NCBI GenBank assembly: GCA_043228905.1
Contig: JBHGNT010000003.1
Coordinates: 17,236,001-17,300,000 of the forward strand
Reading direction: 5' to 3'
Length of the DNA stretch: 64,000 bases
DNA from: Azolla caroliniana
Taxonomy: Eukaryota > Plantae > Polypodiophyta
Made by a program: the position numbers and the translations under genes. Under the pieces are notes generated by a model. It saw only the letters and a program-made list of their open reading frames with translations. It had not been told where the DNA came from and made no database searches. Positions 3,551 to 34,784 of the stretch are shown here, in pieces; positions within the stretch are counted from its first letter, which is position 1, and each line of letters starts with the position of its first letter.

Positions 3551-4093
3551 TCACCACAGCGTGGCCTCCTTCGTGGCATTGTCCGTGCCGTGAGACTCGG
3601 CGAAAGGGTTGGCTTGGGTATTTCCCTGGTACGGTCGCAATCGGAATCCATTCACCCAACTTTCGACAATTTCCCCGGCGTGGGTGCCGATCTGGAACGT
3701 GCCGTTAAACTCGTCATTAATCCAGAAGGAGCCGGTCCATCGGAATTGTAACTTCCCTGGCATGGCACCGAGTCATGTCTAGAAAACGAGGACCGGTTTG
3801 CCGGTGGTCAGTTCTTGTTCCAATCCTTTCCGATGTCGGTCCACAAAGGCTTTCCGTTGTCGTTGGCGCTGTTCAAGTTGGGCCATGCTCGCTACTCGGT
3901 CCTCGCCAAGTTCGAGGAGTTGTGCCAGCCTAAATTGTTCGGATTGGGCCTCAGGGAGCCTTGCTTTAACTTTAACTCGGAGACTTGGAACTTGGAACTC
4001 GATGGGCATAATGGCTTCGAGACCAAAAGCCATCCAAAAGGGGTTGGATTGAATGCTCATTTTGAATGTAGTGCGATAAGCCCATAGTGCACT
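3551..4093 (-). pseudogene. pol: Integrase C-terminus of G1
   Basis: ALWAYRTTFK...PFWMAFGLEAIMPIEF...GKLQFRWTGSF...VNGFRLRPY, an Athila/Tat-like integrase tail. Confidence 0.9.
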
Positions 4094-4532
4094 TGTTGTC
4101 CGCCGGAATTGTAACCGACAGCCAAAAGCGTAGGAATAAGAAACTATATAAGCATAACGTATGTAACGGTTCACGCGGGGAGCGTGAACGGCTAATTAGA
4201 CCCTGCAGATATAAAGGGCAGAAAACCTCTTAAGGAGGTGCGTGTAATTTTTGGGAAATGTAAAAGAACGCCTGATAATAAAATACTATCTTCTTTGTGT
4301 TTCTGTGTATAGCTGCGACTAATTCAGTGTCTATGTCTCGGATACGTAAGCGTAGTAGTACGTAAGTGCAACCTGTGATAAGGAGTCGGTTGTAGCCGTC
4401 TTCTCGTACACACGGAGGAATCACAGAGGTTCTCTCCTTACGCAATACGCTTAAGCTCTGTTCGTTGTTCCACACCCACCTTGGGGTCTAGGTCGAAGGA
4501 CTGACCACGGACCATGTTCCTAAGAGGCAACA
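4094..4532 (+). repeat. 5' LTR of G2
   Basis: TGTTG...GCAACA, direct repeat of 21538-21976, TATAAA near 4210. Confidence 0.95.
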
Positions 4533-4536
4533 CTTT

Positions 4537-4550
4537 TGGCATGCTTGGTG
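4537..4550 (+). promoter_or_regulatory. Primer-binding site of G2 (tRNA-Arg type, two C>T changes)
   Basis: TGGCATGCTTGGTG versus TGGCACGCCTGGTG, the complement of a plant tRNA-Arg(UCU) 3' end; 4 nt after the LTR. Confidence 0.7.
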
Positions 4551-4733
4551 ATCTGTGTTTCCTCACAGACAAGCAACAACGAATGGATGTTTAGCCGCAG
4601 ATGACCCAGAGAACCAACAAGACAAGACCGGCCAATAACAAGGTTCGTCACACGCCAGGCAAAAGAACGCGCCCGGCAAAAACCGTGCATCGGCGACCTC
4701 AGTAATACCTGCCAGTAGTGCAAAGGGGATTCC

Positions 4734-6240
4734 TTGCTCCCCAAATACCTCGACAAGGTGGGGGCACCACGCTTACCGCAGCCACCTGGTGACCTTTTCC
4801 GATCCGCCGTAGCTCCCACGATGGCCTTTGCCTACCCCCGCTTTAATGGCGAAACCGACACCGCAACTCATATTCGCATGTTCTTGAACGTTTGGAATGC
4901 AAACCACATGGCGCAGGACCTTTCCGAGACGGTGGCACACCAGTCGAAAATGATGGAGTTCGGATTAACATTAGATGGGCGTGCGGCGTTTTGGCATTCA
5001 CAGATGGATTTACCAGCCATAACAACCTTCGATCAGCTGCAGTCCGCCTTCTTGCGATTCTTCCACCGGAGGGTTCCACAACGCGAGATTCTCGGGCAGT
5101 TTTATACAATTAAGAAACTACCGACCGAGACGATAGCAGACTTCAGCTTACGTTTCCAAAATTTACGACGGAAACTGGATCGAAGCCCCGCGGAGGAGGA
5201 GGCTCGGGAGACATTTCTGGCAGTGTTACGCCGGCCCATCCGGGCAACGCTCAACAGCAATAGCGTGAAAGGGGAAACGACGGATATGGTGATTGAACGG
5301 GCATTACAGCTCGAGTTGGATGACGAGGAGGAGAGGTTTTCGATGTCATCCTTACGACAAGCGTTACCTCAGGATGAGGAACGCCAATTTTGTCAGGCAA
5401 TCCAGTGCACGATTTGCTTGAACTCAGGGCATTCCGCGGTGGAGTGCAATATGCGAATCCACTGCCCAATCTGCCACTCGAAGGTTCACACAGTCGACCA
5501 ATTCGAGTACAATACGTTAAACAGAGCCACTCCCGCGGTCCACAGCATGGACACACATTGGCAACCGCACCGGGTGGAACAAAGGAGGCAAGAAGACCGA
5601 CCTCGGTATAAGGATCGCAACCCGCAGGAGGACAGGTACAACCGGAATCGCCTGAATCACAACGAGTCCGAGGAGGAGGACACGGAGGACGAGGATTATC
5701 GTGGACATCCGAGTTACGCCAAAGGGGGTTGGCGATACGAACATCAACGCCCGACAAACAAACGGGGCGGCTTCAATGGCTATCGGGGTAAGCCACGACA
5801 ATATAGGGATCACCGGCGTTACGACGAATGCTCAGGGGATGAGCGGCACTAGGAACAACGACGGGACCAACAACAGCCACCGCGTACGTCCCGACAAACG
5901 AGGCCAGACTGCGAAGAGCAAGTAGCGCCCGGAGAACGGCACACTCCACCTGGGGCTGAGAAGGGAGAATCAAGCATCCATTGTTTTATTTGTCAGCAAC
6001 CCGGACACTATGCCACGCAATGCCCAGCACGCAAGGGAAAGGGGCCCATCGTCAACACGATTACGGCGGAGGTGCAACAAGTCACAACATGCCAGCAAAC
6101 GAAAACGGCGGATTGGGCTGCGCAGGACGAGGTACGACGACAAGCCCAAGCCTGAGTGGAAAAAGCAAACGCGACCAATACGGAACGTATGAGGCAGGAG
6201 TCCGCGAACACAATGAAGCGAACAGAGAACGAAAACCGGG
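4734..6240 (+). pseudogene. gag: gag of G2 (retrotransposon gag domain, three CCHC-type knuckles, premature stops)
   Basis: ORF 4734-5852 with YPRFNG...HIRMF, CTICLNSGHSAVEC and CPICHSKVHTVDQ; in-frame CFICQQPGHYATQC at 5982 after a TAG. Confidence 0.85.
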
Positions 6241-8270
6241 GCTGGACCCCATTTGGCAAGTGTTAGCGGGCTGTGAAATCACGCTAAGTATGGAAAAACT
6301 GCTACAGCTAGTTCCACGTTTCCGCCAGACCATGGAAGCACAGGTGGCGGGCATGACCGAGGCGAGCGTTGCCACAAACCTGAAAGACGTTAGCGAGGGA
6401 CCACCAGTGGTGGATCAGCACAACCCGGCCATTACAATAATATTGCACGGACAGGAAGTTCCTGGATGTGTAATCGACGGCGGCTCAGGCGTCAATGTGA
6501 TTAGTGTGAAAACTTGCGAACAGTTGGGCATTTCCGAATGGGAGGCGTGTCCATTTTGGCTTCGCATGGCAGATACCCGATCAGTGCGACCGTTGGGGCT
6601 ACTTCGCAAAATAGGCATCATCGTGGGCGGACACCGCTTCGACATATTGGTGGTCGTCCTCGCTTTGGACGCCCCAGGAGCGTACCCAGTGCTTTTGGGC
6701 AGACCATGGCTTCGGACAATAATTATGAAGCAGAGCTGGCAACACGAGTGTATCAGTTTCCGGCATGGACGCACCAAGGTTCGTGTACCTACGGAAGGCA
6801 ACACGCCACAACCTAAGGGGATAACACCGTTGTATTCGGAAGACATCAATATGTTGGCTGGGGTGGAGGATGCCGAATTGGAAGCGTACCTTGACGAACA
6901 TCCTCAGATTATTCCGATGTTCGAGATAGATGTCATCGCAACTGCGGCAGAATATACTACGGCCATTGTTCTGAACGAAGAGTCGTACGAACCAAACCCA
7001 GAGTCCATATTGGAACTCAGCAGAGCACGGGCGGGCTTCGAAAGGGAAATGGAGATTTCACGACGAGTCACCGCTTCCGCTCTCGACAAAGTGAATGTGG
7101 GTACGGGATCGGAACCCCGGTTCCTCTCCATAGCAAAGGAATTGAGGCCGGACCAGAGAACCACAATGATCGCACTACTCACGGAATATAAAGATGTGTT
7201 CGCGTGGGCTCACGAGGACATGAAGGGGTTAGATCCCAAGTTCTATCAGCATAAGATCAATTTAGCAACGGACGCGAAACCTGTCCAGCAGCGCCGCTAC
7301 CGCATGAACCCCAATTACGCGACTCGCGTGAAAGAAGAAATTGACAAGCTACTGAGGGCGGGGTTCATATGGCCAGTGAAACAAGTGACATGGCTTAGCC
7401 CGATAGTGGTTGTCCCAAAGAAAAACGGCAAAATACGGGTATGCGTGGATTACCGGAAATTAAACGTCGTAACCATTACGGACGCATTTCCCTTACCCTT
7501 CACCGATAGCGTGTTGGACGCCGTCGCAGGCCATGAGATGTACGGTTTCTTAGATGGCTTCAGTGGCTATAACCAAGTACGCATGCACCCCGAGGACCAG
7601 GAGAAGACGACATTTGTCACGGACTGGGGAGTATATGTGGCGGTCGTCTTGATGATCGGGCTAAAGACAGCACCGACAACATTCCAACGAACGATTATGG
7701 AGATCTTAGGGGAATACATTTCGGCGTTCATGCAATTCTTTTTAGATGATTTTGCGGTATATGGGTGAACAAAAGACCATTTCTCGCACTTACGTCTGTG
7801 CCTGGAACGTTGCCGCACTGCACGCTTAAGCCTGAATCCCGCGAAATGTGCCTTCGGTGTGACCAGCGGGACTCTCCTAGGCCACATTGTCAACAAGGAA
7901 GGAATAGCGGTCGACCCAAACAAAATCTCCGCTATTACGCAAGCTAAAACTCCGACAAATGCCAAATCACTTAGCTGGTTTCTAGGCCGAATACGGTGGC
8001 ATAGTCGGATGATACGGTATTTGGCGGACTTCGCCACGCCACTACACGCTGCCGTACATCCGACTCCTTTCCAATGAACTGCAACGAAGGATAAGGCCTA
8101 TGAGGCACTGAAGATAATGCTCACACAGGTCCCCGTCGTACAACCTCCAGTTTGGGCGAAGCCATTCCACGTGTTCGTCGACGCCTCAGACATAGCAATA
8201 AGAAGCGCACTAATGCAACTCACCGAACCAAACTGGTACAGGCGAGTATACTACGCAAGTCGAAAATTGT
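6240..8270 (+). pseudogene. pol: pol of G2: aspartic protease, reverse transcriptase, RNase H N-terminus
   Basis: IDGGSGVNVI, RVCVDYRKLN, FLDGFSGYNQ, FLDDFAVYG, VDASDIAI, YYASRKL; in-frame stops at 7766 and 8075. Confidence 0.92.
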
Positions 8271-8399
8271 TAGCCGATCGCGCAAGCCCCGTCTGGGCTT
8301 GCCTCTCCAATGACCGGGATCTCGGGCTGACACGCCCGAAACCGCTGGTCCCAACGTTCCGGTTCCGCGATTTGTATCTCGGCCTCGTCCTTGGCCGTT

Positions 8400-9815
8400 C
8401 TATCTCCGTAAGTCGAGAGGGCGTTTCGTTCCGCACCCTCTCCCATGGTACCATCGTACCGTGTTCTCGGCCTCTTCGTAGGCCGTTTCCCATCCATCTT
8501 CGCTGGCATCGTGCCAGGACTCCTCAGTACCGCCATCCATCTCCTCGGTCTTACATGGGCATACGGGCCCGAATGCCGAGTTCTCCGGAATCGGGTCCGT
8601 GGGCTTTCGTCCGTTCCTTCCCCGTATCGTCTCGCCGGTGATTCTTGGCCTTTCGCCGACGCCTTCCTCCACTTGGGACTCACGTGGGCACTCGGGCCCG
8701 ACTGCCATCGTCTCGGGAGCAAGTGTGGGAAGACATAAAGAATCGCTCGTCCGTTTTACGCCCTTGTCCGTAGCCACCGACTCTTCATGTTCGGCGGTCG
8801 TTTTCTTACCGATCGCGCAAGCCCCGTCTGGGCTTGCTTCTCCAATGATTGGGATCTCGGGTTGACCCACCCGAAACCGCAAGTCCCAACGTTCCGGTTC
8901 TGCGATCTGTATCTCGGCCTCGTCCTTGGCTGTTCTATCTCCGCAAGTCGAGAGGGCGTTTCGTTCTGCACCCTCTCCCGTGGTACCGTGGTACCGATCT
9001 TCTGTCTTCGCGTGGGGCAAGTCCGTCTTCTCAGTCTCGGCTTGCGGCCTCCGTCTTTCCTCTTCCTCGAGCATCGCCTCAAGAGCTGCGTACGCCTCCG
9101 CAATCTTGGCCCCAACGCCGACCCTTGCCGACTCTCTTTGCCGTTTGGCCTCTTCCCGCTGTGATGGCACGCCGTCGCGTACCTTCCTCTTAGCCTTCTC
9201 GGCTCGCTCGTTGTCTAGCCATTGGCACACCCTTCCGACCTTCGCCCAGTCCTCCGTAAGCCCATTCGCTCCATCATCGTCTTCGAGCTCAATCCCGATG
9301 GCCTCCCGTTCCGCTCGTTCGATCGACCTGACGAACAATAGGACCTTGTCCGCCCCCACCAAACCTTGTTCCCGCTCTGGGAGCCGAGCAAGCCGTCGCT
9401 CGAACTCTCGGAACGCCTTCGTTACACCCCGGTGGGTCTTTGCCGTTGCTACCCATTGGTCGAAGTCGTGTCGTCCCCGGCTCTTCCGCCATCCTCCGTA
9501 TGCCTTCAAGAGCGCCTCTTCGAAGGCCTCCCACGAACTATGAGCCTCACGAAGCTCCTTTATTTCCGCATGCATTTGGACAGCTACGACCCGACAGAAG
9601 AACTCCAGCCTCAACGCCTCGTCTACGCCATGCTCCTCCATTTCCGCATTGTAGGCTTCCATGTAAGATGGGACTTTGTCCCCGTTGAAACGGTCGACTC
9701 TTTCGACCACTCGCTCAACCGCTTGTTGCGCTGCTTCTCGCCTCATCACTACTCGTGCCGACTCCAACACCACTTCGGCCACCATCTCCGCAAGGTCGTC
9801 GTCTTCCGACTCCAT
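8400..9815 (-). CDS. gag: Gag-like protein (471 aa) of the tRNA-Trp-primed element, with a repetitive acidic C-terminus
   Basis: VERVVERVDRFNGDKVPSYMEAYNAEM...WEAFEEALLKAY aligns with VEKVVNCVVEIEGQFYGRNIRRFLDAYKREM at 62811; starts just after the PBS. Confidence 0.75.
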   Translation of the reverse strand: MESEDDDLAEMVAEVVLESARVVMRREAAQQAVERVVERVDRFNGDKVPSYMEAYNAEMEEHGVDEALRLEFFCRVVAVQMHAEIKELREAHSSWEAFEEALLKAYGGWRKSRGRHDFDQWVATAKTHRGVTKAFREFERRLARLPEREQGLVGADKVLLFVRSIERAEREAIGIELEDDDGANGLTEDWAKVGRVCQWLDNERAEKAKRKVRDGVPSQREEAKRQRESARVGVGAKIAEAYAALEAMLEEEERRRPQAETEKTDLPHAKTEDRYHGTTGEGAERNALSTCGDRTAKDEAEIQIAEPERWDLRFRVGQPEIPIIGEASPDGACAIGKKTTAEHEESVATDKGVKRTSDSLCLPTLAPETMAVGPECPRESQVEEGVGERPRITGETIRGRNGRKPTDPIPENSAFGPVCPCKTEEMDGGTEESWHDASEDGWETAYEEAENTVRWYHGRGCGTKRPLDLRR

Positions 9816-9830
9816 CCTCCCTTGCCGCCT

Positions 9831-9848
9831 TTCACGTCGGGTTCACCA
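9831..9848 (-). promoter_or_regulatory. tRNA-Trp primer-binding site
   Basis: Minus strand TGGTGAACCCGACGTGAA, the 18-nt complement of the plant tRNA-Trp 3' end (TTCACGTCGGGTTCACCA) as I recall it. Confidence 0.85.
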
Positions 9849-9887
9849 AAGATGTCGTGTTGTTACGCACGTGCGTGGAGAAAGGCG

Positions 9888-11070
9888 GGATTTTTTGAGC
9901 AGACTTGAGAATGGAGAAACACAGAAAGACGACGACGATTTTCCGGACGCCGACATCTGGCGAGTAGCGACATTTGCAGAAAAAACGGAATCCACCTTTC
10001 CGGATCGATGGCTTATGGAAATGATGTACTTTTTAACTACAGGACTACCTCCACCACAATTACGCACAGACGAGAAGAAACGACTAGCTGTCTGAAGCCG
10101 TCACTTCTGCCTGGTCGAAGGGAATTTATATCACAAAGGGAGTGACGGCATTTGGCGACGTGGAGTCCGTCAAAATGAAAAAGAAGCAGTTTTACGGGAG
10201 GCACACTGTGGCACGGCCGGCGACCATTACGCGAGCAACGTGACAGCCCGCAAAGTATGGCAGGCGGGCTTATGGTGGCCAACAATGCAGAAGGACGCAT
10301 CCGAGTATTGTAGAAAGTGTGATTTGTGCCAGCGGATGGGTCAGCCCGCGGAGGACGCAAGGATGCCACACCAGCCCGTATTACCGCTAGACCCCTTCCA
10401 AAAATGGGGATTGGATTTTGTGGGGCCCTTCATACCACCAGCAGCCCGTACGGGCAACAAATACATATTGGTAGCCACGGATTACTGTACCAAATGGGTA
10501 GAAGCAAAGGCACTATGGGAAAATACGGCGGCCGTCACAGCCAAATTTCTGTATGAGCACATCTGGTGCCGGTTCGGCTGCCCGATTGAGCTCATCAGTG
10601 ACCAGGGGAGCCACTTTCTCAATACGGTGGTTCGGGAACTAACACAGCATTACGCAGTAGTCCACAAGAAGAGCACGCCATACTACCCGCAGGCGAATGG
10701 ATTAGCGGAATCCACGAACAAAACTTTACAGACCATTTTGAAGAAAACCGTCAATGAAAATAGAACGGACTGGGATACCAAACTCCAGAATGTGTTATGG
10801 GCGTACAGAACTAGTTACAAAACAAGCATAAAGTCAACACCGTTCCGGCTAGCGTTTGGACTAGAAGCTGTGATGCCGGTCGAATTTCGGATACCTAGTT
10901 TGTGCATTCAGGTACGGAACCGATTATCAGAAGCCAAGTCAGAGGAGGAACGGCTCTACCAACTCCTCAAACTAAGGGAAAAATGCGTCCACAGCATGGT
11001 TGTGTTGGAAGAGGAACAACGACGGCGTAAAGAGTTTGTTGATCGACATCGGAGCGCAAGGGAAAAGGAG
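9888..11070 (+). pseudogene. pol: Integrase of G2 (HHCC zinc finger plus rve core), interrupted by C1 and resuming at 18145-18393
   Basis: AHCGTAGDHY...[45 protein letters not shown]; tail GKLRFRWTSPY...VNGFRLKPY at 18151-18393. Confidence 0.92.
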
Positions 11071-11127
11071 TGTTGGGAGACAGGTCCCTCCGGATGGGAA
11101 GGGAGAAGAACAGTGCCGACAAACAAT

Positions 11128-13119
11128 CTCGGTTACAGTGACGATGAGTTCGGCTACCGAGTGTGGGACCTGGTCGACAAGAAGGTATTCCGGAGTCAAC
11201 ATATTATCTTCATGGAGGACAAGACACTTGCCGACTGGGAGTCGGAGAAGAAGATAATGAACTCCGAGTCGACCGGTAAGGATCGACTCTACGATGAGCA
11301 GACCCAACCGGCGAGAGACTGGTTAGCACTTGAAGAACCAACCGGATACGGCGAGGATACCGAACCGATAGAAGAAGAAGTAGAGGAAGCTGAGACCGGA
11401 ACCGGCCAAGACCCCGAATCGGATTCGGATGAAGAGCAAGTGGAGGAGCCGGTTACCGAAGCCCGAAGACGGAGATATCCTTTCAGAGAAAGAAGGCCCC
11501 CCCGGAGATTTCTGGATGCAGAGCATGTTCTGCTGAAAGATGAGGGGGAGCCGGAAAGCTTCGACGAAGCGAAGGAAGACACCCACAGCCGAAAATGGTC
11601 AAGTGCCATGCAGGATGAGATGGATTCCCTGCATGAGAACCATACGTACGAATTGGTGGAGTTGCCGAAAGGAAAGCGGGCACTCCAAAACAAGTGGGTG
11701 TACAAGTTGAAACCGGGAGATGCCGGCAACCCCCCGAGATACAAAGCCAGGATCGTGGTGAAGGGGTTCCAGCAGAAGAAGGGCGTGGACTTCGACGAGA
11801 TATTTGCCCTGGTAGTAAAGATGACCTCCATCCGGACGGTGTTGAGTATAGCGGAAAGCATGGACCTCGAGGTAGAGCAGCTAGACGTGAAGACGACATT
11901 CCTTCACGGTGACCTCGAAGAGGAGATCTACATGCAGCAACCGGAGGGATTTGTGGAGAAAGGGAAGGAGCACCTGGTATGCCGGTTGAAGAAGAGCCTG
12001 TACGGACTGAAGCAGGCTCCCCGACAATGGTACCGGAAGTTCGACTCCTTCATGACCGATCAAGGGTACCACAAGACGCAGGCCGATCACTGCGTGTTTG
12101 TGAAGAAGTTTGAAGGAGGCGACTTCCTGATACTCCTTCTGTACGTGGATGACATGTTGATCATCGGACGTGACCAAGTCAAAATACGGATGTTGAAGAA
12201 GGCCCTCAACTGGACCTTCTCAATGAAAGACTTGGGTCAAGCAAGACAGATGCTAGGGATGCACATCATTCGGGACTGGTCAAAGAAGCAATTATGGCTG
12301 TCACAGGAGAAGTACGTGACAAAGGTGCTTCATCGGTTCAACATGTCAGAAGCGAAACCGGTCGGATCGACACTTCCGGCAAACTGCAGGCTATCCGGTA
12401 AGCAGAGCCCGAAGACGAAAGCAGAGAAGGCGGATATGATGAAGATTCCATATGCCTCTGCCGTCGGGAGCTTGATGTACGCAATGGTGTGTACCCGACC
12501 GGATATACGATACGCAGTCGGAGTGGTGAGCCGGTTCATGAGCAATCCCGGCAAAGAGCACTAGAACGCGGTCAAATGGATACTTCGGTATTTGAAGGGC
12601 ACTTCAAATATGTGTCTCCGATTCGGCTCCAGAAAACCTCAACTGGACGGTTTCACTGATTCGGACATGTCGGCTAATGTGGATACCAGCCGGTCTACAT
12701 CCGGGTATGTAATGACATATGCACGGGGAGCTGTTTCGTGGCAGTCGAGGCTGCAGAAGACGGTTGCGTTGTCAACCACAGAGGCGGAGTACATGGCGGC
12801 TGTGGAAGCCGGCAAGGAAATATTATGGATGAAGGACTTCATCGAAAAGCTCGGTATCCGGCAAGAGGAATACCGACTCTATTGCGACAGTCAAAGTGCC
12901 ATCCACCTTGCTAAGAATGCGGCCTACCATTCCCGGACGAAGCATATCCAGCGGAGGTATCACTAGATCTGGGAAAGAGTAGATGACCAGGAGTTCGCGC
13001 TGACGAAGATCCACACGGCCGAGAACGGGTCAGATATGCTGACCAAAGTTCTGATACCCGACAAGCTAGATGCATGCCGGAAGTGGATTGGACTGGTAAG
13101 ACACCCCATGCCGGAGTGA
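11128..13119 (+). pseudogene. pol: C1 pol: integrase tail, RT, RNase H (stops at 12562 and 12964)
   Basis: [79 protein letters not shown]. Confidence 0.92.
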
Positions 13120-13186
13120 AGGGGTAGTTTGTTGGGAGACAGGTCCCTCCGGATGGGAAGGGAGAAGACCAATGCCGACGAACAAT

Positions 13187-13321
13187 CCGAATGAGGAGTA
13201 CCCGGCTACGGAGAGCCGGATGGTGCAGACCCGGTGTGAACCGGATGAGGAGTACCCGGCTACGGAGAGCCGGATGGTGCAGACTCGGTGTGAACCGGAT
13301 CAGGAGTACCCGGCTACGGAG
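13187..13321 (+). repeat. 54-bp CCGG-rich tandem repeats in U3 of the C1 3' LTR (continue at 17588-17680 after C2)
   Basis: Unit CCGGATGAGGAGTACCCGGCTACGGAGAGCCGGATGGTGCAGACCCGGTGTGAA repeated. Confidence 0.9.
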
Positions 13322-16300
13322 TGTCGAATACATGTGTATAATGGACGTATTCACACTATCCCGTTTTGGCCATTTATGTAATTAGCATAAAGGGTAATTG
13401 CCCTAAGTCAGTCACTATATATAGTGACCTTGTAACCTTTTTGTAGGGTTGGATTGTTGTATTCTTGTCTATTGGAATATAGAGTTTTCTTGTGTCTCTC
13501 TCTCTCTCTCTCTCTGTGCAACGACCTACATTCTATCATACACAGGGAAGCAACGAAGATCGAATGCTTCTCGATCTTCCGCATTGACGACCTTCCTCGT
13601 CAACCACGGCTGTTAAATACTCCGAAGTCACGAGCGCAATCCTGACCGAAGCAGCTCGGAGAAAGTCCTTCGCCAAAGACTCAACAGACGACGCTTACGT
13701 AGTACAAGGTTCGACAGACCGATCGAACATACGAGGAAGAGATTCCTCACGGCCGCCGAACAATCAGCGAAGACGGAGCCAGTCACGGGATAACCGAATC
13801 TGCAATTATTGCAAGAAACCCGGACACATCAAAGCCGACTGCCGCGCTCAAGAACAAGAACAACAAGAAGAGTGGCCGGCATGAGGAGATCAATTATGTC
13901 AGCTTCTCAGCTGATGTACTACCGGACGACCCGAATATACTATCAATCGAAAATCCAGTCGGATCAGAAGTTCTGCTCACGACTGAAGAATCGAGCACAT
14001 GGCTCTTAGATTCGGGTGCGTCATTTCACGTGACTCCTCATCGATCCCAATTTCGGCAATATACGATCCGTCACTCTGACTCAGTTCGGGTCGGCAACTC
14101 ACAACACTGTGACATCATTGGAATCGGCACAGTAGAGCTCAACCTTGCAGGTGGCTCTACACTTGTACTCCACAATGTCCGACATGTACCCGAGCTCTCA
14201 AGACCATTGATCTCAGTCGGACAACTAGATGAAGACGGCATTCGTGCCGGTTTTTCTTCGGGAGGGTGGACACTCCACAGGGGGAACCTCCTGCTTGCTA
14301 GAGGACCCAAGATACACTCCCTGTATCCGTTACATGTTACGCTCAGAGAGGGTAACCTGTTTTTGGTGGATATTCCTGTGTCATCACTATGGCACCGAAG
14401 ATTAGGACACCTCAGCAAGGCCGGCATCACACACCTATCTAGAGCCGGATACATCCCCAAACTCTCCTTCTCGGACCATCAATTCTGCGAGCATTGCCAG
14501 TATGGCAAACAAGTAGCCGCATCACACCCGACATCAGCACCAAGAGAAACGAGACCTCTTGATTTGGTCCATTCGGACGTCTGTGGCCCAATGCCGCATC
14601 AGTCTCTAGGCGGTGCCTCTTACTTCGTCAGTTTTATTGACGATTCGACTCGAAAGGTGTGGGCTTATCCAATTCGCACCAAAGATCGGGTCTTCTCGAT
14701 CTTCACCGATTGGCTCGCTATGGTAGAAAATCAAACCGACCGAAAGCTGAAATGCCTTCGGACAGACAATGGGGGAGAGTTCAAATCCGAAGAATTCGTC
14801 AAATTCTGCCGACAACGCGGCATCCGACGTGAACTTACGGCACCACACAGTCCGGAGCAAAACGGGATTGCAGAACGAATGAATCGGACAATCCAAGAAC
14901 GGACAGTTTCCATGCTCCAACACTCCGGACTGTCGGATGGCTTCTGGGCAGAGGCTCTACTCACGGCAGTACACATAATCAATATGTCGCCAAGTAGACC
15001 TCTAGGACTTCAAATTCCTCAGGAACTATGGATCGGCAGTAAGCCGAATTACGACAAGCTGAGGATCTTCGGATGCGAGGCGTACGCCCTCATTCCGAAA
15101 GATGATCGCCGAAAACTTGCACCTCGGTCCAGGAAATGCATTTTCCTTGGATATGGATCCGACGGCGAAATGGGATACCGACTCTGGGACCCCGAACGCA
15201 GGCAAATCGTTCGAAGTTCGGACGTTGTGTTCAACGAGTCGGCTATGAACCCATCCGTCGAAAAACCAATCGAAGTCCGAAGGGTAACATTTTCCGATGT
15301 GCCGACCCTTCAAGAAGGCCCCGCTCTCAACACACGGTCAGCTTCACGGGTAGCTGAACCTTACTCTACCGACTCGGACAACTCCGACTCGGCACAGCAG
15401 AACAACTCGCTTTCGGACCATCCGACCACGATACCCGATGCGACCAGTCCAATCCTACCTCGACGATCCGAGAGACTGTCGCAACCTCCGGAGAGGTACT
15501 CTCCTGGAATTTTCTTCACCGACGCCGGCGAACCGACGTCTTACGAAGAAGCATCGACATCTGTCGATTCCGCCACCTGGCATCTGGCGATGGAGTCGGA
15601 AATGCACTCCATTCGGGCAAACAAGACTTGGGATCTGGTCGAATTACCTAGGAACCGACGTGCTCTTCCTTGCAAGTGGGTTTATCGACTAAAAGAGACG
15701 TCTGATTCGACCACCCCAAAGTACAAGGCCAGATTAGTTGCGAAGGGCTTCCGACAAGAATATGGCGTCGACTACGACGAGATTTTTTCACCAGTGGTGA
15801 AAATGACAACCCTTCGTTTTCTGCTCGGCGTCGTGGCAGCCGATAACTTGGAGCTGATTCAGCTAGATGTTAAAACAGCCTTCCTCCATGGTGATCTCGA
15901 GGAGGAAATTTATATGGAGCAGCCAAAAGGCTTCGTGGCAACTGGCCAAGAACATCTAGTCTGCCGACTCAGGAAGAGTCTATACGGCCTCAAACAGGCA
16001 CCGCGACAATGGTACAAGAAGTTCGACGACTTCATCCAATCGATCGGCTTCTCAAAAAGCGATGAGGACCATTGTCTCTTTACCAACACAGCTCAAGATG
16101 GATCACCCATCTTCCTCATCATTTACGTGGACGACATGCTAATTTCTGGACGCCACGCGGGCGAACTTGCCGATCTCGTTCGGCAACTGCGGTTGAAGTT
16201 TGCCATGAAGGACCTCGGTCCGGCACGACACATACTCGGCATGAAGATTAGTCGGCATCGCGATAAACGACATCTTTTTTTGTCTCAGACCGACTACATC

Positions 16301-17587
16301 GGACGTGTCTTGGAACGCTTCAACATGCAATCAGCCAAATCTGCTTCAACCCCGCTCCCCATGAATCTTCGGCTCTCTCAGTGAGACTGCCCGACATCCG
16401 GTCCGGAGGGGGAAGATATGAAGTCGGTACCGTATGCACCGGCAGTCGGCTCCCTTATGTACCTGATGGTCGCGACACGGCCTGATATCTCTCATGCCGT
16501 AGGAGTCGTTAGCAGATTTATGCACAATCCTGGCCGATCGCATTGGAACGCAGTCAAGCATGTGTTCAGATATCTGGCTGGCACAAAAGACCATGGCATT
16601 CTTTTCGGTCCGAACCGAACCTCAGGCGTAGTCGGTTACACCGACTCGGATTTCGCCGGCTGTATAGACAGTCGAAAATCAACAACCGGATACTGCTTCA
16701 AATTCGGCAATGGAGCAATCTCGTGGAAGTCGAAACTTCAGGAGTGCACAGCGACCTCAACAACCGAAGCAGAATATGTAGCTGCGTCCGACGCAGCAAA
16801 AGAAGCTTTGTGGCTCGGTCGGCTGGCGCACACGTTTCGACAAGTCGACCATGACTCAGCTCCAATTGTCTACAGCGACAGTCAAGGTGCTGTTGCCCTG
16901 TCGAAAAATCCGGTTCACCACAACGCCTCCAAACATATCGACGTTCGATATCACTTCGTTCGGGACTGCGTCATTTCAGGGAAAATCGGTCTAGAGAAAA
17001 TATCCACAACCGACAATGTCGCAGATGGAATGACCAAGTGTCTTTCGGCAGACCGTTTTCGGTCTCTTCGGCATCAGATGGGCGTAACGACAAACCAGTC
17101 CGGTTAGAGCCGGACACAGAGCAGGATGGTTCCCGACAACCGACATCAGTTCCTTAATGATCGGCTTCAACTGTTCCGACCCGACCAGTTCGGTCTTCTG
17201 CTTTCGGACCCTGCCGACTCGAACAAAGCTGATATGTCCGAGAACCCAAGTCTATACCTGTAATCTTAGATAACCCATGTATACGCCCATTACGGGGGAG
17301 TGTCGAATACATGTGTATAATGGACGTATTCACACTATCCCGTTTTGGCCATTTATGTAATTAGCATAAAGGGTAATTGCCCTAAGTCAGTCACTATATA
17401 TAGTGACCTTGTAACCTTTTTGTAGGGTTGGATTGTTGTATTCTTGTCTATTGGAATATAGAGTTTTCTTGTGTCTCTCTCTCTCTCTCTCTCTGTGCAA
17501 CGACCTACATTCTATCATACACAGGGAAGCAACGAAGATCGAATGCTTCTCGATCTTCCGCATTGACGACCTTCCTCGCCTACAACA
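13322..17587 (+). mobile_element. Ty1/copia element C2 (C3 family), lacking PBS and gag N-terminus, inserted in the C1 3' LTR
   Basis: Perfect TSD CGGAG. 5' LTR 13322-13599 is fused directly to gag (STTAVKYSEV). 3' LTR 17301-17587; PPT GGGGGAG ends at 17300. Internal sequence nearly identical to C3. Confidence 0.95.
13600..17107 (+). pseudogene. pol: C2 gag-pol remnant (frameshift near 13846, CGA>TGA at 16382)
   Basis: CNYCKKPGH, WLLDSGASFH, LWHRRLGH, DLVHSDVCGP, IYVDDML, ASKHIDVRYHFVRD. Confidence 0.93.
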
Positions 17588-18736
17588 CGGAGAGCCGGAT
17601 GGTGCAGACCCGGTGAGAACCGGATGAGGAGCACCCGGCTACGGAGAGCCGGATGACGCAGACCCGGTGAGAACCGGAGGTAGAGACATATTCGTAAATA
17701 TGTTTCTGAGAGCCCATCGAGGCTATATTTGTAAATAGCCGAAAAGTCATATTAGTATAAATATGACTTAGGGCAAACGCATTTTGTTATCGTTGTCATT
17801 TTCTTGTTGGTGCAAGAAGAAGAGAGAGCACATAACAGTGTACAGAGAGAGAGAGAGAGAGAAAGAGGTCGTTGCCTCTGTTGTAACTACCGCTTGTGGC
17901 GAAGATCGTGAGCACGAGGTCGTTGCCTCCGTGAACTCACTGTTTTGTGTATTCCAACATAGTGATAGTTTGCAGCCTGTGGGCTGCCGTGGTTTTTCCC
18001 TCTTTGGGTTTTCCACGTAAACATTCTGTGTACCTTTTCTCTCCTTTGTGTCGCGTGTTTTCGTTTCCTATTTTCTGTGTATGAAAAGAATCTCGGTTGT
18101 GGCCGAGCGTTGTGCATAGGGAGCGTTGAGTTCCCGTCAAGGAGTTCGCCGTGGGCCGAGCGGTGCTAGTTTTTCAAACGCGCATGGGCCAGATGTCGGG
18201 GAAGCTACGTTTCCGCTGGACCAGCCCATACTGGATAATCGGAGCGGAACAGGGCACGTTCCAACTAGGAAAGCTGGCTGGAGAAATAGTACGGCAAAAA
18301 GTGAATGGGTTTCGGCTCAAACCTTACCTAGGCCCTACGCCACCTAACCCATTCACCGCCGAACGGGACAAAGCCGGAGAACCAGCAACGTAAAAGAGAC
18401 AGTTCCATTTGTATTATAATGTAAATATAGGGTGTAAATAACCGTTACGAAAAAAGAAAAAAAAGAAAAAAAAGAAAAAGAGAAGATAGCGTCTATTAAA
18501 ACGACTAAAGGCGTGCACAAACTCCTAGTTCAAGAACACGCGGCACCACGATGGCTCACCGCCCAATGAACCCTAAGCCACAAAAAGAAGGAAACAGAAG
18601 ATTTTCTACACAAAGCTGAAACACATCGTCTAGCTATCAACGCTCCCATCGCTCCTCCTCACGTTCTTCCCCATCATATCTCAGAGCTCCAACTCACCAC
18701 TGCTACCCATCTCCTCTCCACGAACCTACTCTGGCA

Positions 18737-21193
18737 ATGCCGATCTTCATCTCTATTGCCCTACGCCGATGGCTTGTGGAGAAGCGCCTGGATGGTTACA
18801 TTCGAGTTGTAGAAGCACCTCCGCACTCGGACGCCATGGATATCGCCAGGCGGCTTAACATCGACACGGTCACCAACTCTTCCATTCAGAAGAAGTTAGA
18901 CCTATCCTCACTAGGCGAAAGACATTTCGAAATACCTCCTACAGAGGCGTTGCAATGGTATTTTGGCCCATATTCATCCTCCGCCAAGGCCTATAGAACA
19001 AAACAGATTCCAGATCCCTTCTTCCGTGAAGTTGCCAAGTTCCTACTGGAAGTCGGTTGCGTCCATGTCAACGCTTACGGGATGCCTAAACAGAAGGCGG
19101 ACATCATTATCGACACCTTTGAAGGGCGTATAGTCGATTGGGGGGTCATCACAAGGTCGGCGTTAAGGGAAGGCTTGCATGCGTACCAAGCAGGCAAAAA
19201 GCTCAGGCCAATCATCCAACAATACCTTATGGTATTGTTTCCAACCCGAGGCCTGCCAGCACCACAACCCAGCCAACCCACGGCCCCGCCCCGCTCTGCG
19301 AAATTCAGGTTAGCAGAGTTAGCGGCCCCAGAGTGGGAGGAACCCCAACCGGCCCAACCAGGCCCAAGGACAACACCTCCTACCGACCAACCGGACACAC
19401 GGGTGACGCAGGATGAACAGCCGAGACACCCCATGGAAGCATCCCCAGAACCAGACACTAAAGCACGGTGGGAAAGCCCTAGACCAAAACGGAGCAGATT
19501 GGATAGAAAAGATGGGCGGGGGTTGGTAAAAAACGCCCCCACGGATCCGGAGGCACCGACCGCAGGCGAAGGCCTCGCAACAGCAGAGCCGAATACCACC
19601 TTCGAAATCATCCGGGAGCCGCGGCCGATTATTATGACTCAGTCCCAACAAGGGAAAGCCGTATTGACGGCGGAAAGCGAGGTTTTGGCATATCCGGATA
19701 TTCCGGATACGGCCCACGAATTCAGCGCCCTCTTGCAGTTTGGTACCTCTTTCGAGCTCATGGAGTTCCTGGCAACACAACAGGTCAAAGCCGCCCAACA
19801 AATGGCCGAGGAGCATGCGGAACGTCAGATGATAGAGCGTGCCCTAACGCAAACAACGGAGAGCGACGATGAGGACCGGCTAGCCAGGGTCGGCAGACAG
19901 AGGAACGCCGGGGTACAGCGAGTAGGGATGGAGATACCACCCTTAAACACGGCCCTAGTCGAAGTCCATCGGGAACTGCCAAAGGTCAGCACGAGCGCCA
20001 AGGAGATGGCCATAAAAAATAAGAATGTCTAGAAGAAGGTGAAACTGATGGAAGCCGAACTACAAAAGGCCAACACACGCATCGCGGAGTTTGAAGCTCA
20101 CACGACTACGGCGCAACACGAAACTACGCCACCGAACCACGTTATCAACGCTCTCAAAGAAGAAATCGAGGCTCAGACCGCCATCGCCTCAAAAGCAAAA
20201 AGGGTCGTGCAGCTAGCGGAATACGAAATTGACTGTCTTCAAGCAAAACTACGCCAATCCTCCGACAGAGAAAAGGAGATACGGGCTAACGGACGAAAGG
20301 CCGTAAAAACGCTTGAAGAGAAACTAGCTACGGAGGTAGCCCAGCACATCCGAACAAAAGACAATGCCCAATTACGAGAGGACGCGAAGAAATCAGAGGG
20401 GGCAATAGCAGGACTTCGGGCCTTATTAGAAAAAAAGAAGGTATGGTTCGATGAGCAGTTGGTAGTCGAACAAGACAGAAGCCATCAACTCGAAATCCGC
20501 CTAAACAATGAAATGGGGAAATTAGAAGAATAGCATGAAAAGGAATCCCAGTTGTGGGCGGGCTTGAAAGCCACTTATGAGGAAGCGGCAACCGTTAAAC
20601 AGCAGGAAATCGCGAATCTCCAGAAGTCGATGGAAGACGCACGCAACTGCTGCCAGGCCATCACGGATAACGTGCGCATCCTTCTCCAGACCAACCGGGA
20701 AAGGTTCACAATGCAATTGAAAACGGCGCTGGACAAAGGATGGATGGCGTGGGCAACCCAAGCAGCGGAATTGCACGTGTATCGTGCGGACTGGGAGAAC
20801 TGGCGGAAAGACGGCCGAGGGTTTTATAAGCTAAACGAGGAGAGCATTGCGATCGTACAGGAGGACCTAGCGCAAGACTATCGCGCATTAGCAGGCCAAC
20901 ACTCCGAAGAACTCGCACAACTCCTAGAAGATTTTGGTGAAAGTCAGGAGGAGGTATTTCACCAGATCACACAAACCGGCAACACGCACACGAATGAGGA
21001 ACCCAGCGGGACACCAATTCCGGTCACAGCCGAAGAAGAGGAACCTCAGGCCCAATCACCAGAGAGGACAACGGGGGAGAATAGCGGGGACGAACGAGCG
21101 GAGTTCCCCATAGGACCAGACAGCGAAACCATTAACCAACAAGAGGTCCAACCCACACCATCTTCAAAAAATGCGGAAAATAGTGCGGACTAG
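18737..21193 (+). pseudogene. 3' extra ORF of G2 (about 818 aa, two premature in-frame TAG stops), function unknown
   Basis: ORFs 18737-20032, 20039-20533 and 20552-21193 share one frame. The N-terminal domain is homologous to the G1 and G3 extra ORFs, followed by a Pro-rich linker, an E/K/Q/A-rich heptad region and an acidic tail. Confidence 0.85.
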
Positions 21194-21519
21194 GCGGAAT
21201 CCTCGCCCCACGCCTAGGGACACACAAAAACGGCCAACACCGCGGAGGACGTAACAATAGAAGCTGAGCTGCAGCCGACTGCAAGCACGCTACCGGCGGA
21301 GCCCAACCCACTAACTCAAGAAGAGCCCACCGTACCCGAACCACCCGCACACGGCGAAGGCGACTCCGGGAGAAACCAGGCCGACCAAGCAGAGGAGGCG
21401 CACCACGATGCACCTACAGGCCTTACATCAACTCCGGACGAGGACACCACAACAGAGCCGAACATCCGGGCCATTTTGGAAGAAGATTAACGGGATGGGT
21501 CTGACGTGCAAAGGCACTA

Positions 21520-21535
21520 TCCCACAGGCGTGCCA
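21520..21535 (+). promoter_or_regulatory. tRNA-Arg 3'-end-like sequence (inverted PBS) at the PPT position of G2
   Basis: TCCCACAGGCGTGCCA, then GG, then the LTR TGTTG; no purine run adjacent to the 3' LTR. Confidence 0.7.
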
Positions 21536-21537
21536 GG

Positions 21538-21976
21538 TGTTGTCCGCCGGAATAGTAACCGACGGCCAAAAGCGTAGGAATAAGAAACTATATAAGCGTA
21601 ACATATGTAACGGTTCATGCGGGGAGCGTGAACAGTTAATTAGACCCTGCAGATATAAAGGGCAGAAAACCTCTTAAGGAGGTGCGTGTAATTTTTGGGA
21701 AATGTAAAAGAACGCCTGATAATAAAATACTATCTTCTCTGTGTTTCTGTGTATAGCTGCGACTAATTCAGTGTCTGTGTCTCGAATACGTAAGCGTAGT
21801 AGTACGTAAGTGAAACCTGTGATAAGGAGTCGGTTGTAGTCGTCTCCCCGTACACACGAAGGAATCACAGAGGTTCTCTCCTTACGCAGTACGCTTAAGC
21901 TCTGTTTGCTGTTCCACACCCACCTTGGGGTCTAGGTCGAAGGACTGACCATGGACCGTGTTCCTAAGAGGCAACA
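21538..21976 (+). repeat. 3' LTR of G2
   Basis: Direct repeat of 4094-4532. Confidence 0.95.
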
Positions 21977-21981
21977 ACACT

Positions 21982-26845: not shown

Positions 26846-26858
26846 ACCGGGCGTGCCA
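26846..26858 (-). promoter_or_regulatory. tRNA-Arg primer-binding site of G1
   Basis: Minus strand TGGCACGCCCGGT, a 13-nt match to the complement of the tRNA-Arg(UCU) 3' end, 5 nt from the LTR. Confidence 0.85.
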
Positions 26859-26863
26859 AATTG

Positions 26864-27356
26864 TGTTATTCGTTCCTCTCGAAAACACCTTCAATGAGCC
26901 CACAGGCTATCGGTGTCAAGGGATCGTGTTACGTGGAAGCTTCTTCTACACGGGGAAAAGAGAGGAGAACAAGGATCGTACACGGGCTACAACCCGTTAG
27001 GTATGAACGTAGCTTGATTTACGAGTACGGGGAGAATACACAAATAGAAGTTTAGAAAAGACGAAACTTATATTCCATGATAAAGCTTACAATGATTACA
27101 GTACTTGGCCTCAACCGGAAACAGTACGTATAGAGCTTGCTCCTATGATAGTACTTTCGCTCAGAATGATCTAGGTATCCCCCTTGTCGAGGTACACAGA
27201 CCTCGGTTTATATACTTTTTTCTTCATACAGAGCCGAGCCGTCGGTTGACTGTGAGGCTCGAAACTCAACGTTCTCCTAAACTCTACCTTCCTCACCTAC
27301 TCCCACTTAATGACGAGTTTACATAATATATTTATTTTTATGGCCTATGGACAACA
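26864..27356 (-). repeat. 5' LTR of G1
   Basis: TGTTA...ACAACA termini, adjacent PBS, TATA-like TATATAAA near 27207-27214; interrupts the G3 extra ORF. Confidence 0.8.
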
Positions 27357-34265: not shown

Positions 34266-34322
34266 ATCCATGCCCGCCACTATTCGCTTTGTTTGTGCAA
34301 GAATCATGGTCGCCGAAAACTG

Positions 34323-34784
34323 TGTTATCGCTAGGGCCGGACAATGGCCTAACATAGGGTGTCCCTTTGAGACACTTCACCAACGGGGTGTTGTGGTGAG
34401 ATAGAGTTAGACCAACTATTAATGGAACCTTAATGGGTTACTAGCGGCAATATCATTAGTCACAATACACGTGTAGGATAAATTATGCTTAGCACAGAAC
34501 AGTAATTAACAATGATTAAGATACAGAACAACAACACTCTATTAATTATCCGCTGATGATTACAATCTAACCGGCTCTTTTAATAGGTTTCCGGTTTTAG
34601 GTACAAACCGGTGCCAACCGGCAACCAGCTACGAACCGGTCCGGATCCGGATCGGCATACCGATTCCGCGTCCTTCCGTTCGCTTCTCAAATCATAATAA
34701 TTCTATATAAATATATAATCAGCTCCTGGTTATTAATTATCCCCTCGTTTCCCATTCTGGACTTCCCTTGCCGGCCGGCTAACA
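34323..34784 (-). repeat. 5' LTR of G3
   Basis: TGTTA...CTAACA; a homologous solo copy lies at 35454-35898. Confidence 0.9.

Follow-up and report, generated by a model that had tools for sequence, protein, structure and literature searches.

A tRNA-Arg(UCU)-type site occupies the position of the polypurine tract in a Ty3/gypsy lineage of a plant genome

Two sources regard priming of the plus strand by a polypurine tract (PPT) as the general rule in LTR retrotransposons and retroviruses (PMC5371799; 10.1101/2022.12.06.519325). In yeast Ty3, as described in PMC5371799, the minus strand is primed by a tRNA, the start of the plus strand fixes the end of U3, and most copies do not inherit the primer-binding site (PBS) from the tRNA. 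The lineage analysed here resembles Ty3 in all these respects and encodes a similar RT-RNase H (E 3e-74), but it has no PPT; a tRNA site stands at the plus-strand start instead, and priming would occur in trans, from a host tRNA. In the literature searched, most subscription papers lying outside the search, no account of a tRNA site in place of the PPT was found, and the available portions of PMC11963269 and PMC12312487 contain nothing on unusual plus-strand priming.

The G2 element and its lineage

The window, i.e., the whole 64-kb stretch of DNA that was analysed, belongs to a plant genome of 523 Mb. In its positions 1-36000, four families of the lineage are nested, with G0 and G2 inside G3 and G3 inside G4, and copia elements are inserted in G2 from about position 11070 on (Table 1). 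The two LTRs of G2 are 95.4% identical. The 3' LTR of the G3 element lies outside the window (G000:C3:17225268-17225761) and bears the same tRNA-like module as that of G2. The G0 LTR at position 549, considered as a 3' LTR without the motif, was rejected as such and is a 5' LTR.

Table 1. Features of the window and clear host tRNA relics elsewhere in the genome
Feature	Position	Strand	Remarks
G2 element, whole	4094-21976	+	LTR pair and target site duplication (TSD)
Left TSD of G2, GCACT	4089-4093	+	Right copy ACACT at 21977-21981
G2 5' LTR, 439 bp	4094-4532	+	
G2 minus-strand PBS	4537-4550	+	After CTTT spacer; one transition relative to family form TGGCACGCTTGGTG
G2 gag-pol, broken	4719-11069	+	Gag, RT, RNase H, integrase
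G2 sense extra ORF, broken	18620-21490	+	Stop codon 21488-21490; no Pfam match
Copy of tRNA-Arg(UCU) nt 49-58	21495-21504	+	T-stem 5' strand and T-loop
4-bp hairpin GTGC-AAAG-GCAC	21506-21517	+	Between A58 and G59 equivalents
Copy of tRNA nt 59-76 with CCA	21519-21535	+	One base missing; putative plus-strand tRNA-binding site, acting on the minus strand
Motif TCCCACAGGCGTGCCA	21520-21535	+	Followed by GG, then LTR TG at 21538
2-nt spacer GG	21536-21537	+	Putative left end of linear cDNA
G2 3' LTR	21538-21976	+	TG start at 21538
G3 PBS (neighbouring family)	26846-26858	-	13-nt match to CGGG isodecoder
G3 5' LTR	26864-27356	-	
G4 PBS (further family)	34303-34315	-	tRNA-Arg(UCG) type, first base changed
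G4 5' LTR	34323-34784		
Relic	C2:12014869		57 nt identical to host gene plus CCA, then TG, LTR, Arg(UCG) PBS
Relic	C16:17527334		U5-spacer-T, exactly 18 nt of tRNA, AG, U3; three tandem LTRs at 5' end
Relic	C20:881278		Partial U3, exactly 18 nt of CAGG isodecoder, TG, LTR, Arg(UCG) PBS
Relic	C2:12742724		nt 26-76, T at position 58, then LTR, Arg(UCG) PBS

The direct LTRs with TG..CA ends, the TSD and the domain order Gag-PR-RT-RH-INT place the lineage in Ty3/gypsy. A tRNA PBS follows the 5' LTR, and the tRNA module stands ahead of the 3' LTR in place of a PPT. No chromodomain was found in the lineage, and its RT falls outside the chromodomain-bearing clade; a second RNase H (aRH) was found neither in an uninterrupted polyprotein of 1,861 aa nor in one of 1,358 aa. 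In the RT tree, whose references carry no lineage labels, the lineage forms its own clade (100/99) in the non-chromovirus group, apart from the angiosperm clade, with liverwort (Riccia, Marchantia) and unnamed sequences as nearer relatives. Neither the motif nor a protein relative was detected in the viral contigs searched. A sense extra ORF is lineage-wide (also, e.g., at L398:1490-4156) and extends over 888 aa from stop to stop in one copy; the encoded protein has an acidic end and a charged part resembling a coiled coil, and has no Pfam match above the cut-off. In G2, its stop codon lies 47 nt ahead of the 3' LTR.

The tRNA-like module ahead of the 3' LTR

A preliminary description of the window had pointed out that G2 lacks a PPT-like G/A run and that a tRNA-like motif ends 2 nt ahead of the TG of its 3' LTR. 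Both observations hold for the family: in the 30 best G2 junction copies, the longest purine run within 25 nt ahead of the TG is 3 nt (29 copies) or 4 nt (one copy), and the motif with its 2-nt gap is kept in all 30 (18 identical, 10 with one change and two with two changes), the spacer being GG in 26, TG in three and AG in one. The G/A runs ascribed to copia 3' LTRs are likewise present, at three such LTRs in the window. Comparison across family copies, which had been suggested as a check, thus found the motif and the gap conserved and no normal PPT at this position.

What had appeared as a single visible copy is confirmed here as a lineage-wide feature, in sequence terms. The exact motif pattern has 2,244 matches in the genome compared with none for the reversed-pattern control, which excludes a chance match. 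In searches with the LTR only, which do not select for the motif, 15 of 30 G3 LTRs follow the module, nine are 5' LTRs and six are solo or partial, with no shared PPT-like sequence upstream in these 30; for G0, the module precedes seven of 30 LTRs, and the others have unrelated flanks. Clustering of 179 junctions by LTR start (91 from this genome and 88 from metagenome contigs of one record series) yielded 66 clusters, of which 65, related to each other and chosen by the motif, contain the whole module; the remaining one lacks the upstream part and was left out. LTR starts and upstream sequences diverge among the 65 clusters, and 63 of the 88 metagenome LTR starts have no match of at least 80% among the sampled loci of this genome. 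In two further organisms, the contigs align over the module and the LTR start only (organism C) or almost only (organism D). That the site is a one-off aberrant product, a chance match or a functionless relic has therefore a negligible probability in our estimate: the evident origin of the module from a captured tRNA is all that speaks for it, against conservation in the 65 diverging clusters and in the two further organisms, where only this stretch aligns.

The host tRNA-Arg(UCU) genes end in GTCCCAC-C(A/G)GGCGTG, -CAAGCGTG or -TAGGCGTG, with isodecoder ends CAAG-, CAGG-, CGGG- or TAGG-CGTG, so that the motif can be identified as the 3' end of this tRNA including CCA, one base short, in agreement with the preliminary description. 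Its last 11 nt are exact. The whole module, ~45 nt, corresponds to tRNA nt 49-58, a hairpin insert at A58, and nt 59-76 minus one C. The part corresponding to nt 49-58 is on average identical at 8.2 of 10 positions over the 65 clusters (4.3 in shuffles). At the G59 equivalent, the window copy has A, whereas 27 of the 30 best G2 copies have G. The insert of 13-14 nt is placed exactly between A58 and G59, and the stem-loop described earlier for the window copy is not only present but formed by pairs that covary across families. Two-sided changes occur in all four pairs, in 34 cells compared with 9.3 in shuffled data (0 of 500 shuffles as high, with rows related to one another), and the stem types include GTGC/GCAC (22), GTAC/GTAC (11), GGAC/GTCC (5) and others. 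The window copy folded alone is not significant (z 0.38).

These properties bear on the possibility that the primer is made in cis, i.e., that the element's own module RNA survives RNase H as a tRNA mimic and is cut after CCA, acting as an atypical PPT, with the host tRNA relics discussed below as by-products of template switching. In favour of it are the end point of the module, which coincides with the primer position, its covarying hairpin and its potential to fold on the plus strand (mean -13.5 kcal/mol); such a primer would also require nothing beyond the canonical cis-primer logic laid out in PMC5371799. In the outer T-stem-like helix, on the other hand, compensatory and wobble changes are absent and 20% of the cells are broken, a count biased by the search pattern, which fixes the 3' arm. 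At R67, likewise constrained by the pattern, no bases occur other than the two seen in host isodecoders. Transitions in nt 49-58 that keep a wobble pair amount to 53/520 (10.2%) per site and pair-breaking ones to 10/130 (7.7%), similar rates that favour neither strand as the one on which the module works. The model duplex between tRNA nt 49-76 and the minus strand, with the hairpin looped out, has a predicted energy of about -46 kcal/mol, RNA parameters serving as a proxy. Given the outer helix, R67 and the relic evidence, we regard a cis-acting mimic as unlikely.

Primers at the two ends of the elements

The PBSs reported earlier at 4537 and, on the minus strand, at 26858 are as claimed. The family form of the G2 PBS, TGGCACGCTTGGTG, is a 14-nt match to the CAAG isodecoder of tRNA-Arg(UCU) (25 of 30 loci parsed). 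At least 10 clusters carry a different PBS, TGGCGACCACGA, complementary to host tRNA-Arg(UCG), and yet have an Arg(UCU)-type 3' site. The isoacceptor of the 3' site, which was expected to covary with that of the PBS, thus does not. Copies exact to the tRNA, in several isodecoder forms, adjoin U5 and indicate that minus-strand synthesis starts from host tRNAs; at the level of sequence, priming by tRNA-Arg(UCU) or tRNA-Arg(UCG) is shown. Long retro-copies of tRNA-Arg(UCU) are found at the PBS of several loci (L103 at G000:C4:20101880, L104, L105, L107 and L091), and one of them is full-length and called as a tRNA gene by ARAGORN; copies of this sort may lead to overestimated numbers of tRNA genes. 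At L061, L068, L069 and L078-L080, tRNA genes (Lys-UUU with Asn, Ile-UAU and Arg-UCU) are arrayed in tandem, and there are head-to-head pairs of copies of the Arg(UCG) 3' end at G000:C8:19460356-19460389 and C597:62-116.

The second option of the preliminary description was that the 3' region of the RNA pairs with the element's own PBS, by circularisation or self-priming. In G2 and G3, the 3' site is indeed complementary to the PBS over 11 nt, with a predicted duplex energy of -21.4 kcal/mol for G2, and three loci (L465, L466 and L476) show that such pairing can occur by accident. In these loci, the 3' module is joined via 18 tRNA-exact nt to a reversed U5, in at least one case from another family, likely after erroneous transfer of plus-strand strong-stop DNA to the 3' site. 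Self-pairing is out as a general explanation because the Arg(UCG)-PBS clusters keep the Arg(UCU) site, the predicted energy dropping to -8.9 kcal/mol in those families. Furthermore, the PBSs match the host tRNA over 13-14 nt, further than they match the 3' site, the motif agrees with the tRNA where PBS and tRNA differ, and the host tRNA captures at U5 are evidence that the minus strand starts from a tRNA. We consider this option highly improbable.

The first option, in which tRNA-Arg primes the plus strand on minus-strand cDNA, makes a prediction about aberrant products. Should a tRNA primer stay attached to the plus strand, its sequence ought to be copied into the minus strand beside the U3 of the 5' LTR; such a relic would have the host sequence, without the missing base or the hairpin, and would stop at m1A58, a known RT stop on primer tRNA in HIV-1 according to PMC8599865. 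Four clear, independent aberrant insertions of this kind were found, each combining host-tRNA-exact sequence with the family's own spacer and the U3 of a 5' LTR (Table 1). Their tRNA parts measure 18, 18, 51 and 57 nt, CCA included, and two stop at A58. The relics on C16 and C20 differ from the 3' site of their own element (CGGG in the C20 element) and keep its spacer; the C16 element has a normal TSD. In the relic at C2:12742724, the T at position 58 is a typical misreading of m1A. Both C2 relics and that on C20, i.e., three of the four, belong to families with Arg(UCG) PBSs, so that the relic is not the minus-strand primer. The three local copies of the C2:12014869 relic count as one event, and contigs of four runs do not bridge its junction. 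The surroundings of this tRNA-bearing LTR (G000:C2:12003663-12024481) contain duplications of ~790 bp of host DNA and of a 6.9-kb block, a pattern that cDNA might leave behind if it integrated with one end unprocessed.

With two probable cases (C3:21697340 of the G2 family, 16/18 nt with a fold-back, and C3:8094145, a mosaic with the element hairpin and no PBS after it) and an ambiguous one (C781:14061), the tally at U3 is four clear, two probable and one ambiguous relic, all from aberrant products. Three further candidates, L195, L227 and L232, join reversed U5 and were rejected; L228 is unclassified. Captures of tRNA-Arg(UCG) join U5 in 20 of 20 cases examined (20 of 100). Among the tRNA-Arg(UCU) matches listed (30 of 72 rows), 24 distinct captures with longer spacers comprise 17 at U5, two at U3 and five unclassified.

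No element-type relic on a 5' LTR was found in a targeted search: of its 20 matches, 17 resemble ordinary 3' junctions with point changes and three resemble other LTRs inserted in the hairpin. Likewise, a PBS stands behind the LTR that follows an element-type motif in 0/30 among the matches listed (30 of 2,244). This absence, set against four host tRNA relics, speaks against the cis-acting mimic introduced above. In tandem arrays, the element-type motif, LTR and PBS do occur in succession (6/30 rows), so that relics are not alone in having a PBS behind the LTR. A G3-like array of this kind, with shared LTRs (module-LTR-PBS), spans G000:C2:15.20-15.36 Mb (L124, L128, L131, L133, L135, L136 and L138-L140), and several of its elements have the same 56-nt LTR deletion. 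The search for G2 LTR-LTR junctions gave 0 matches. In another family (L229 and L391, G000:C16:17526865-17528300), the 11-nt spacer from the U5 CA to the PBS is retained whole, with one additional T, in LTR-LTR junctions; the right cDNA end of this family may lie 12 nt past the CA and its integrase processing may be unusual, and its insertions have normal 5-bp TSDs.

The relics could arise in another way, by a template switch of RT from element RNA to tRNA over the 11 nt of homology. This route is still one that puts the tRNA 3'-OH in priming register, by annealing, although it would not amount to routine priming. In LTR replication, it is established that only plus-strand strong-stop DNA serves as the template for the U3 of the 5' LTR, and tRNA sequence beside that U3 therefore points to a covalent primer. 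Such a primer might usually be a 3' tRNA fragment (an 18-nt tRF or a 3' half) rather than the intact tRNA, as the two clear relics and the probable one of exactly 18 nt would suggest. We find this very unlikely: two relics reach nt 20 and nt 26, and captures of the minus-strand primer end at these points too, in keeping with RT halting on a whole tRNA.

Proposed mechanism and comparison with known systems

Since there is no PPT, the site is conserved and host tRNA relics occur at this very point, a tRNA likely starts the second strand. The lineage-wide site at the PPT position and the U3 relics thus support the first option, and we infer with good confidence that the plus strand is started by host tRNA-Arg(UCU) annealed to minus-strand DNA. 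In a more inclusive form, which we hold to be probable, the lineage is PPT-free and primes both strands from host tRNAs, many families using two isoacceptors (Arg-UCG for the minus and Arg-UCU for the plus strand), by means of a domesticated tRNA 3' half that would form a three-way junction with the primer at m1A58. Under this scheme, minus-strand synthesis starts from a tRNA bound at the 5' PBS; after the first transfer, RT would copy U3 and the module, and RNase H would clear the RNA. tRNA-Arg(UCU) would then pair with the exposed DNA via 11 nt or more of its 3' end (probably nt 49-76). The DNA hairpin would loop out at m1A58, tRNA C66 would bulge, and RT would extend the CCA-OH through the spacer into U3. 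RNase H would take off the plus-strand primer as it does with the minus-strand primer, and failed removal would let the minus strand read into the tRNA, leaving relics. The site itself would be inherited from element RNA, which would account for the persistence of the one-base gap. An argument against tRNA priming of the plus strand is that RNase H also accepts tRNA:DNA hybrids as substrates. In favour of the proposal, one uninterrupted copy retains the catalytic residues of RNase H.

If the proposal is correct, RT can start both strands on tRNA in a high-copy, successful PPT-free lineage, and the tRNA:DNA hybrid is spared long enough for extension. The two ends of the element would be mechanistically symmetric, and tRNA fragments would have a second target at which to control it. 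PPT-scoring annotation tools would misjudge the lineage. The relics give defined predictions, testable with short oligonucleotides.

Among known systems, the bipartite PBS of Ty1 and Ty3 is similar in that one tRNA pairs with split segments, the T arm included (available text of PMC5371799). There, the segments are complementary to the tRNA on the RNA and serve minus-strand priming, whereas the site described here is tRNA-sense on the RNA and can therefore bind tRNA only on minus-strand DNA. Self-priming elements (Tf1, Tcn1 and TAR) also depart from the standard primer rule, but according to the accessible parts of PMC6317226 and 10.1101/2022.12.06.519325 it is their minus-strand primer that is changed, the fission yeast elements keeping a PPT, whereas here the plus-strand primer changes; no PBS of the Tf1 type, complementary to the element's own RNA rather than to a tRNA, was found in the lineage. 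With Athila/Tat, as presented in the available portion of PMC6317226, the lineage shares the order GAG-PROT-RT-RH-INT, the lack of a chromodomain, 5-bp TSDs, an extra 3' ORF and a non-Met tRNA PBS. It differs from Tat (TatI-III, Ogre, Retand) in the lack of aRH; from Athila, with Asp, Asn or Ala PBSs, in its Arg(UCU) or Arg(UCG) PBS and sense extra ORF; and from Phygy and Selgy, for which 4-bp TSDs, Trp or Ala PBSs and no extra ORF are given, in its 5-bp TSD, Arg PBS and extra ORF. What sets it apart from Athila/Tat as a whole is that it has no PPT and forms an RT clade of its own, nearer to liverwort sequences.
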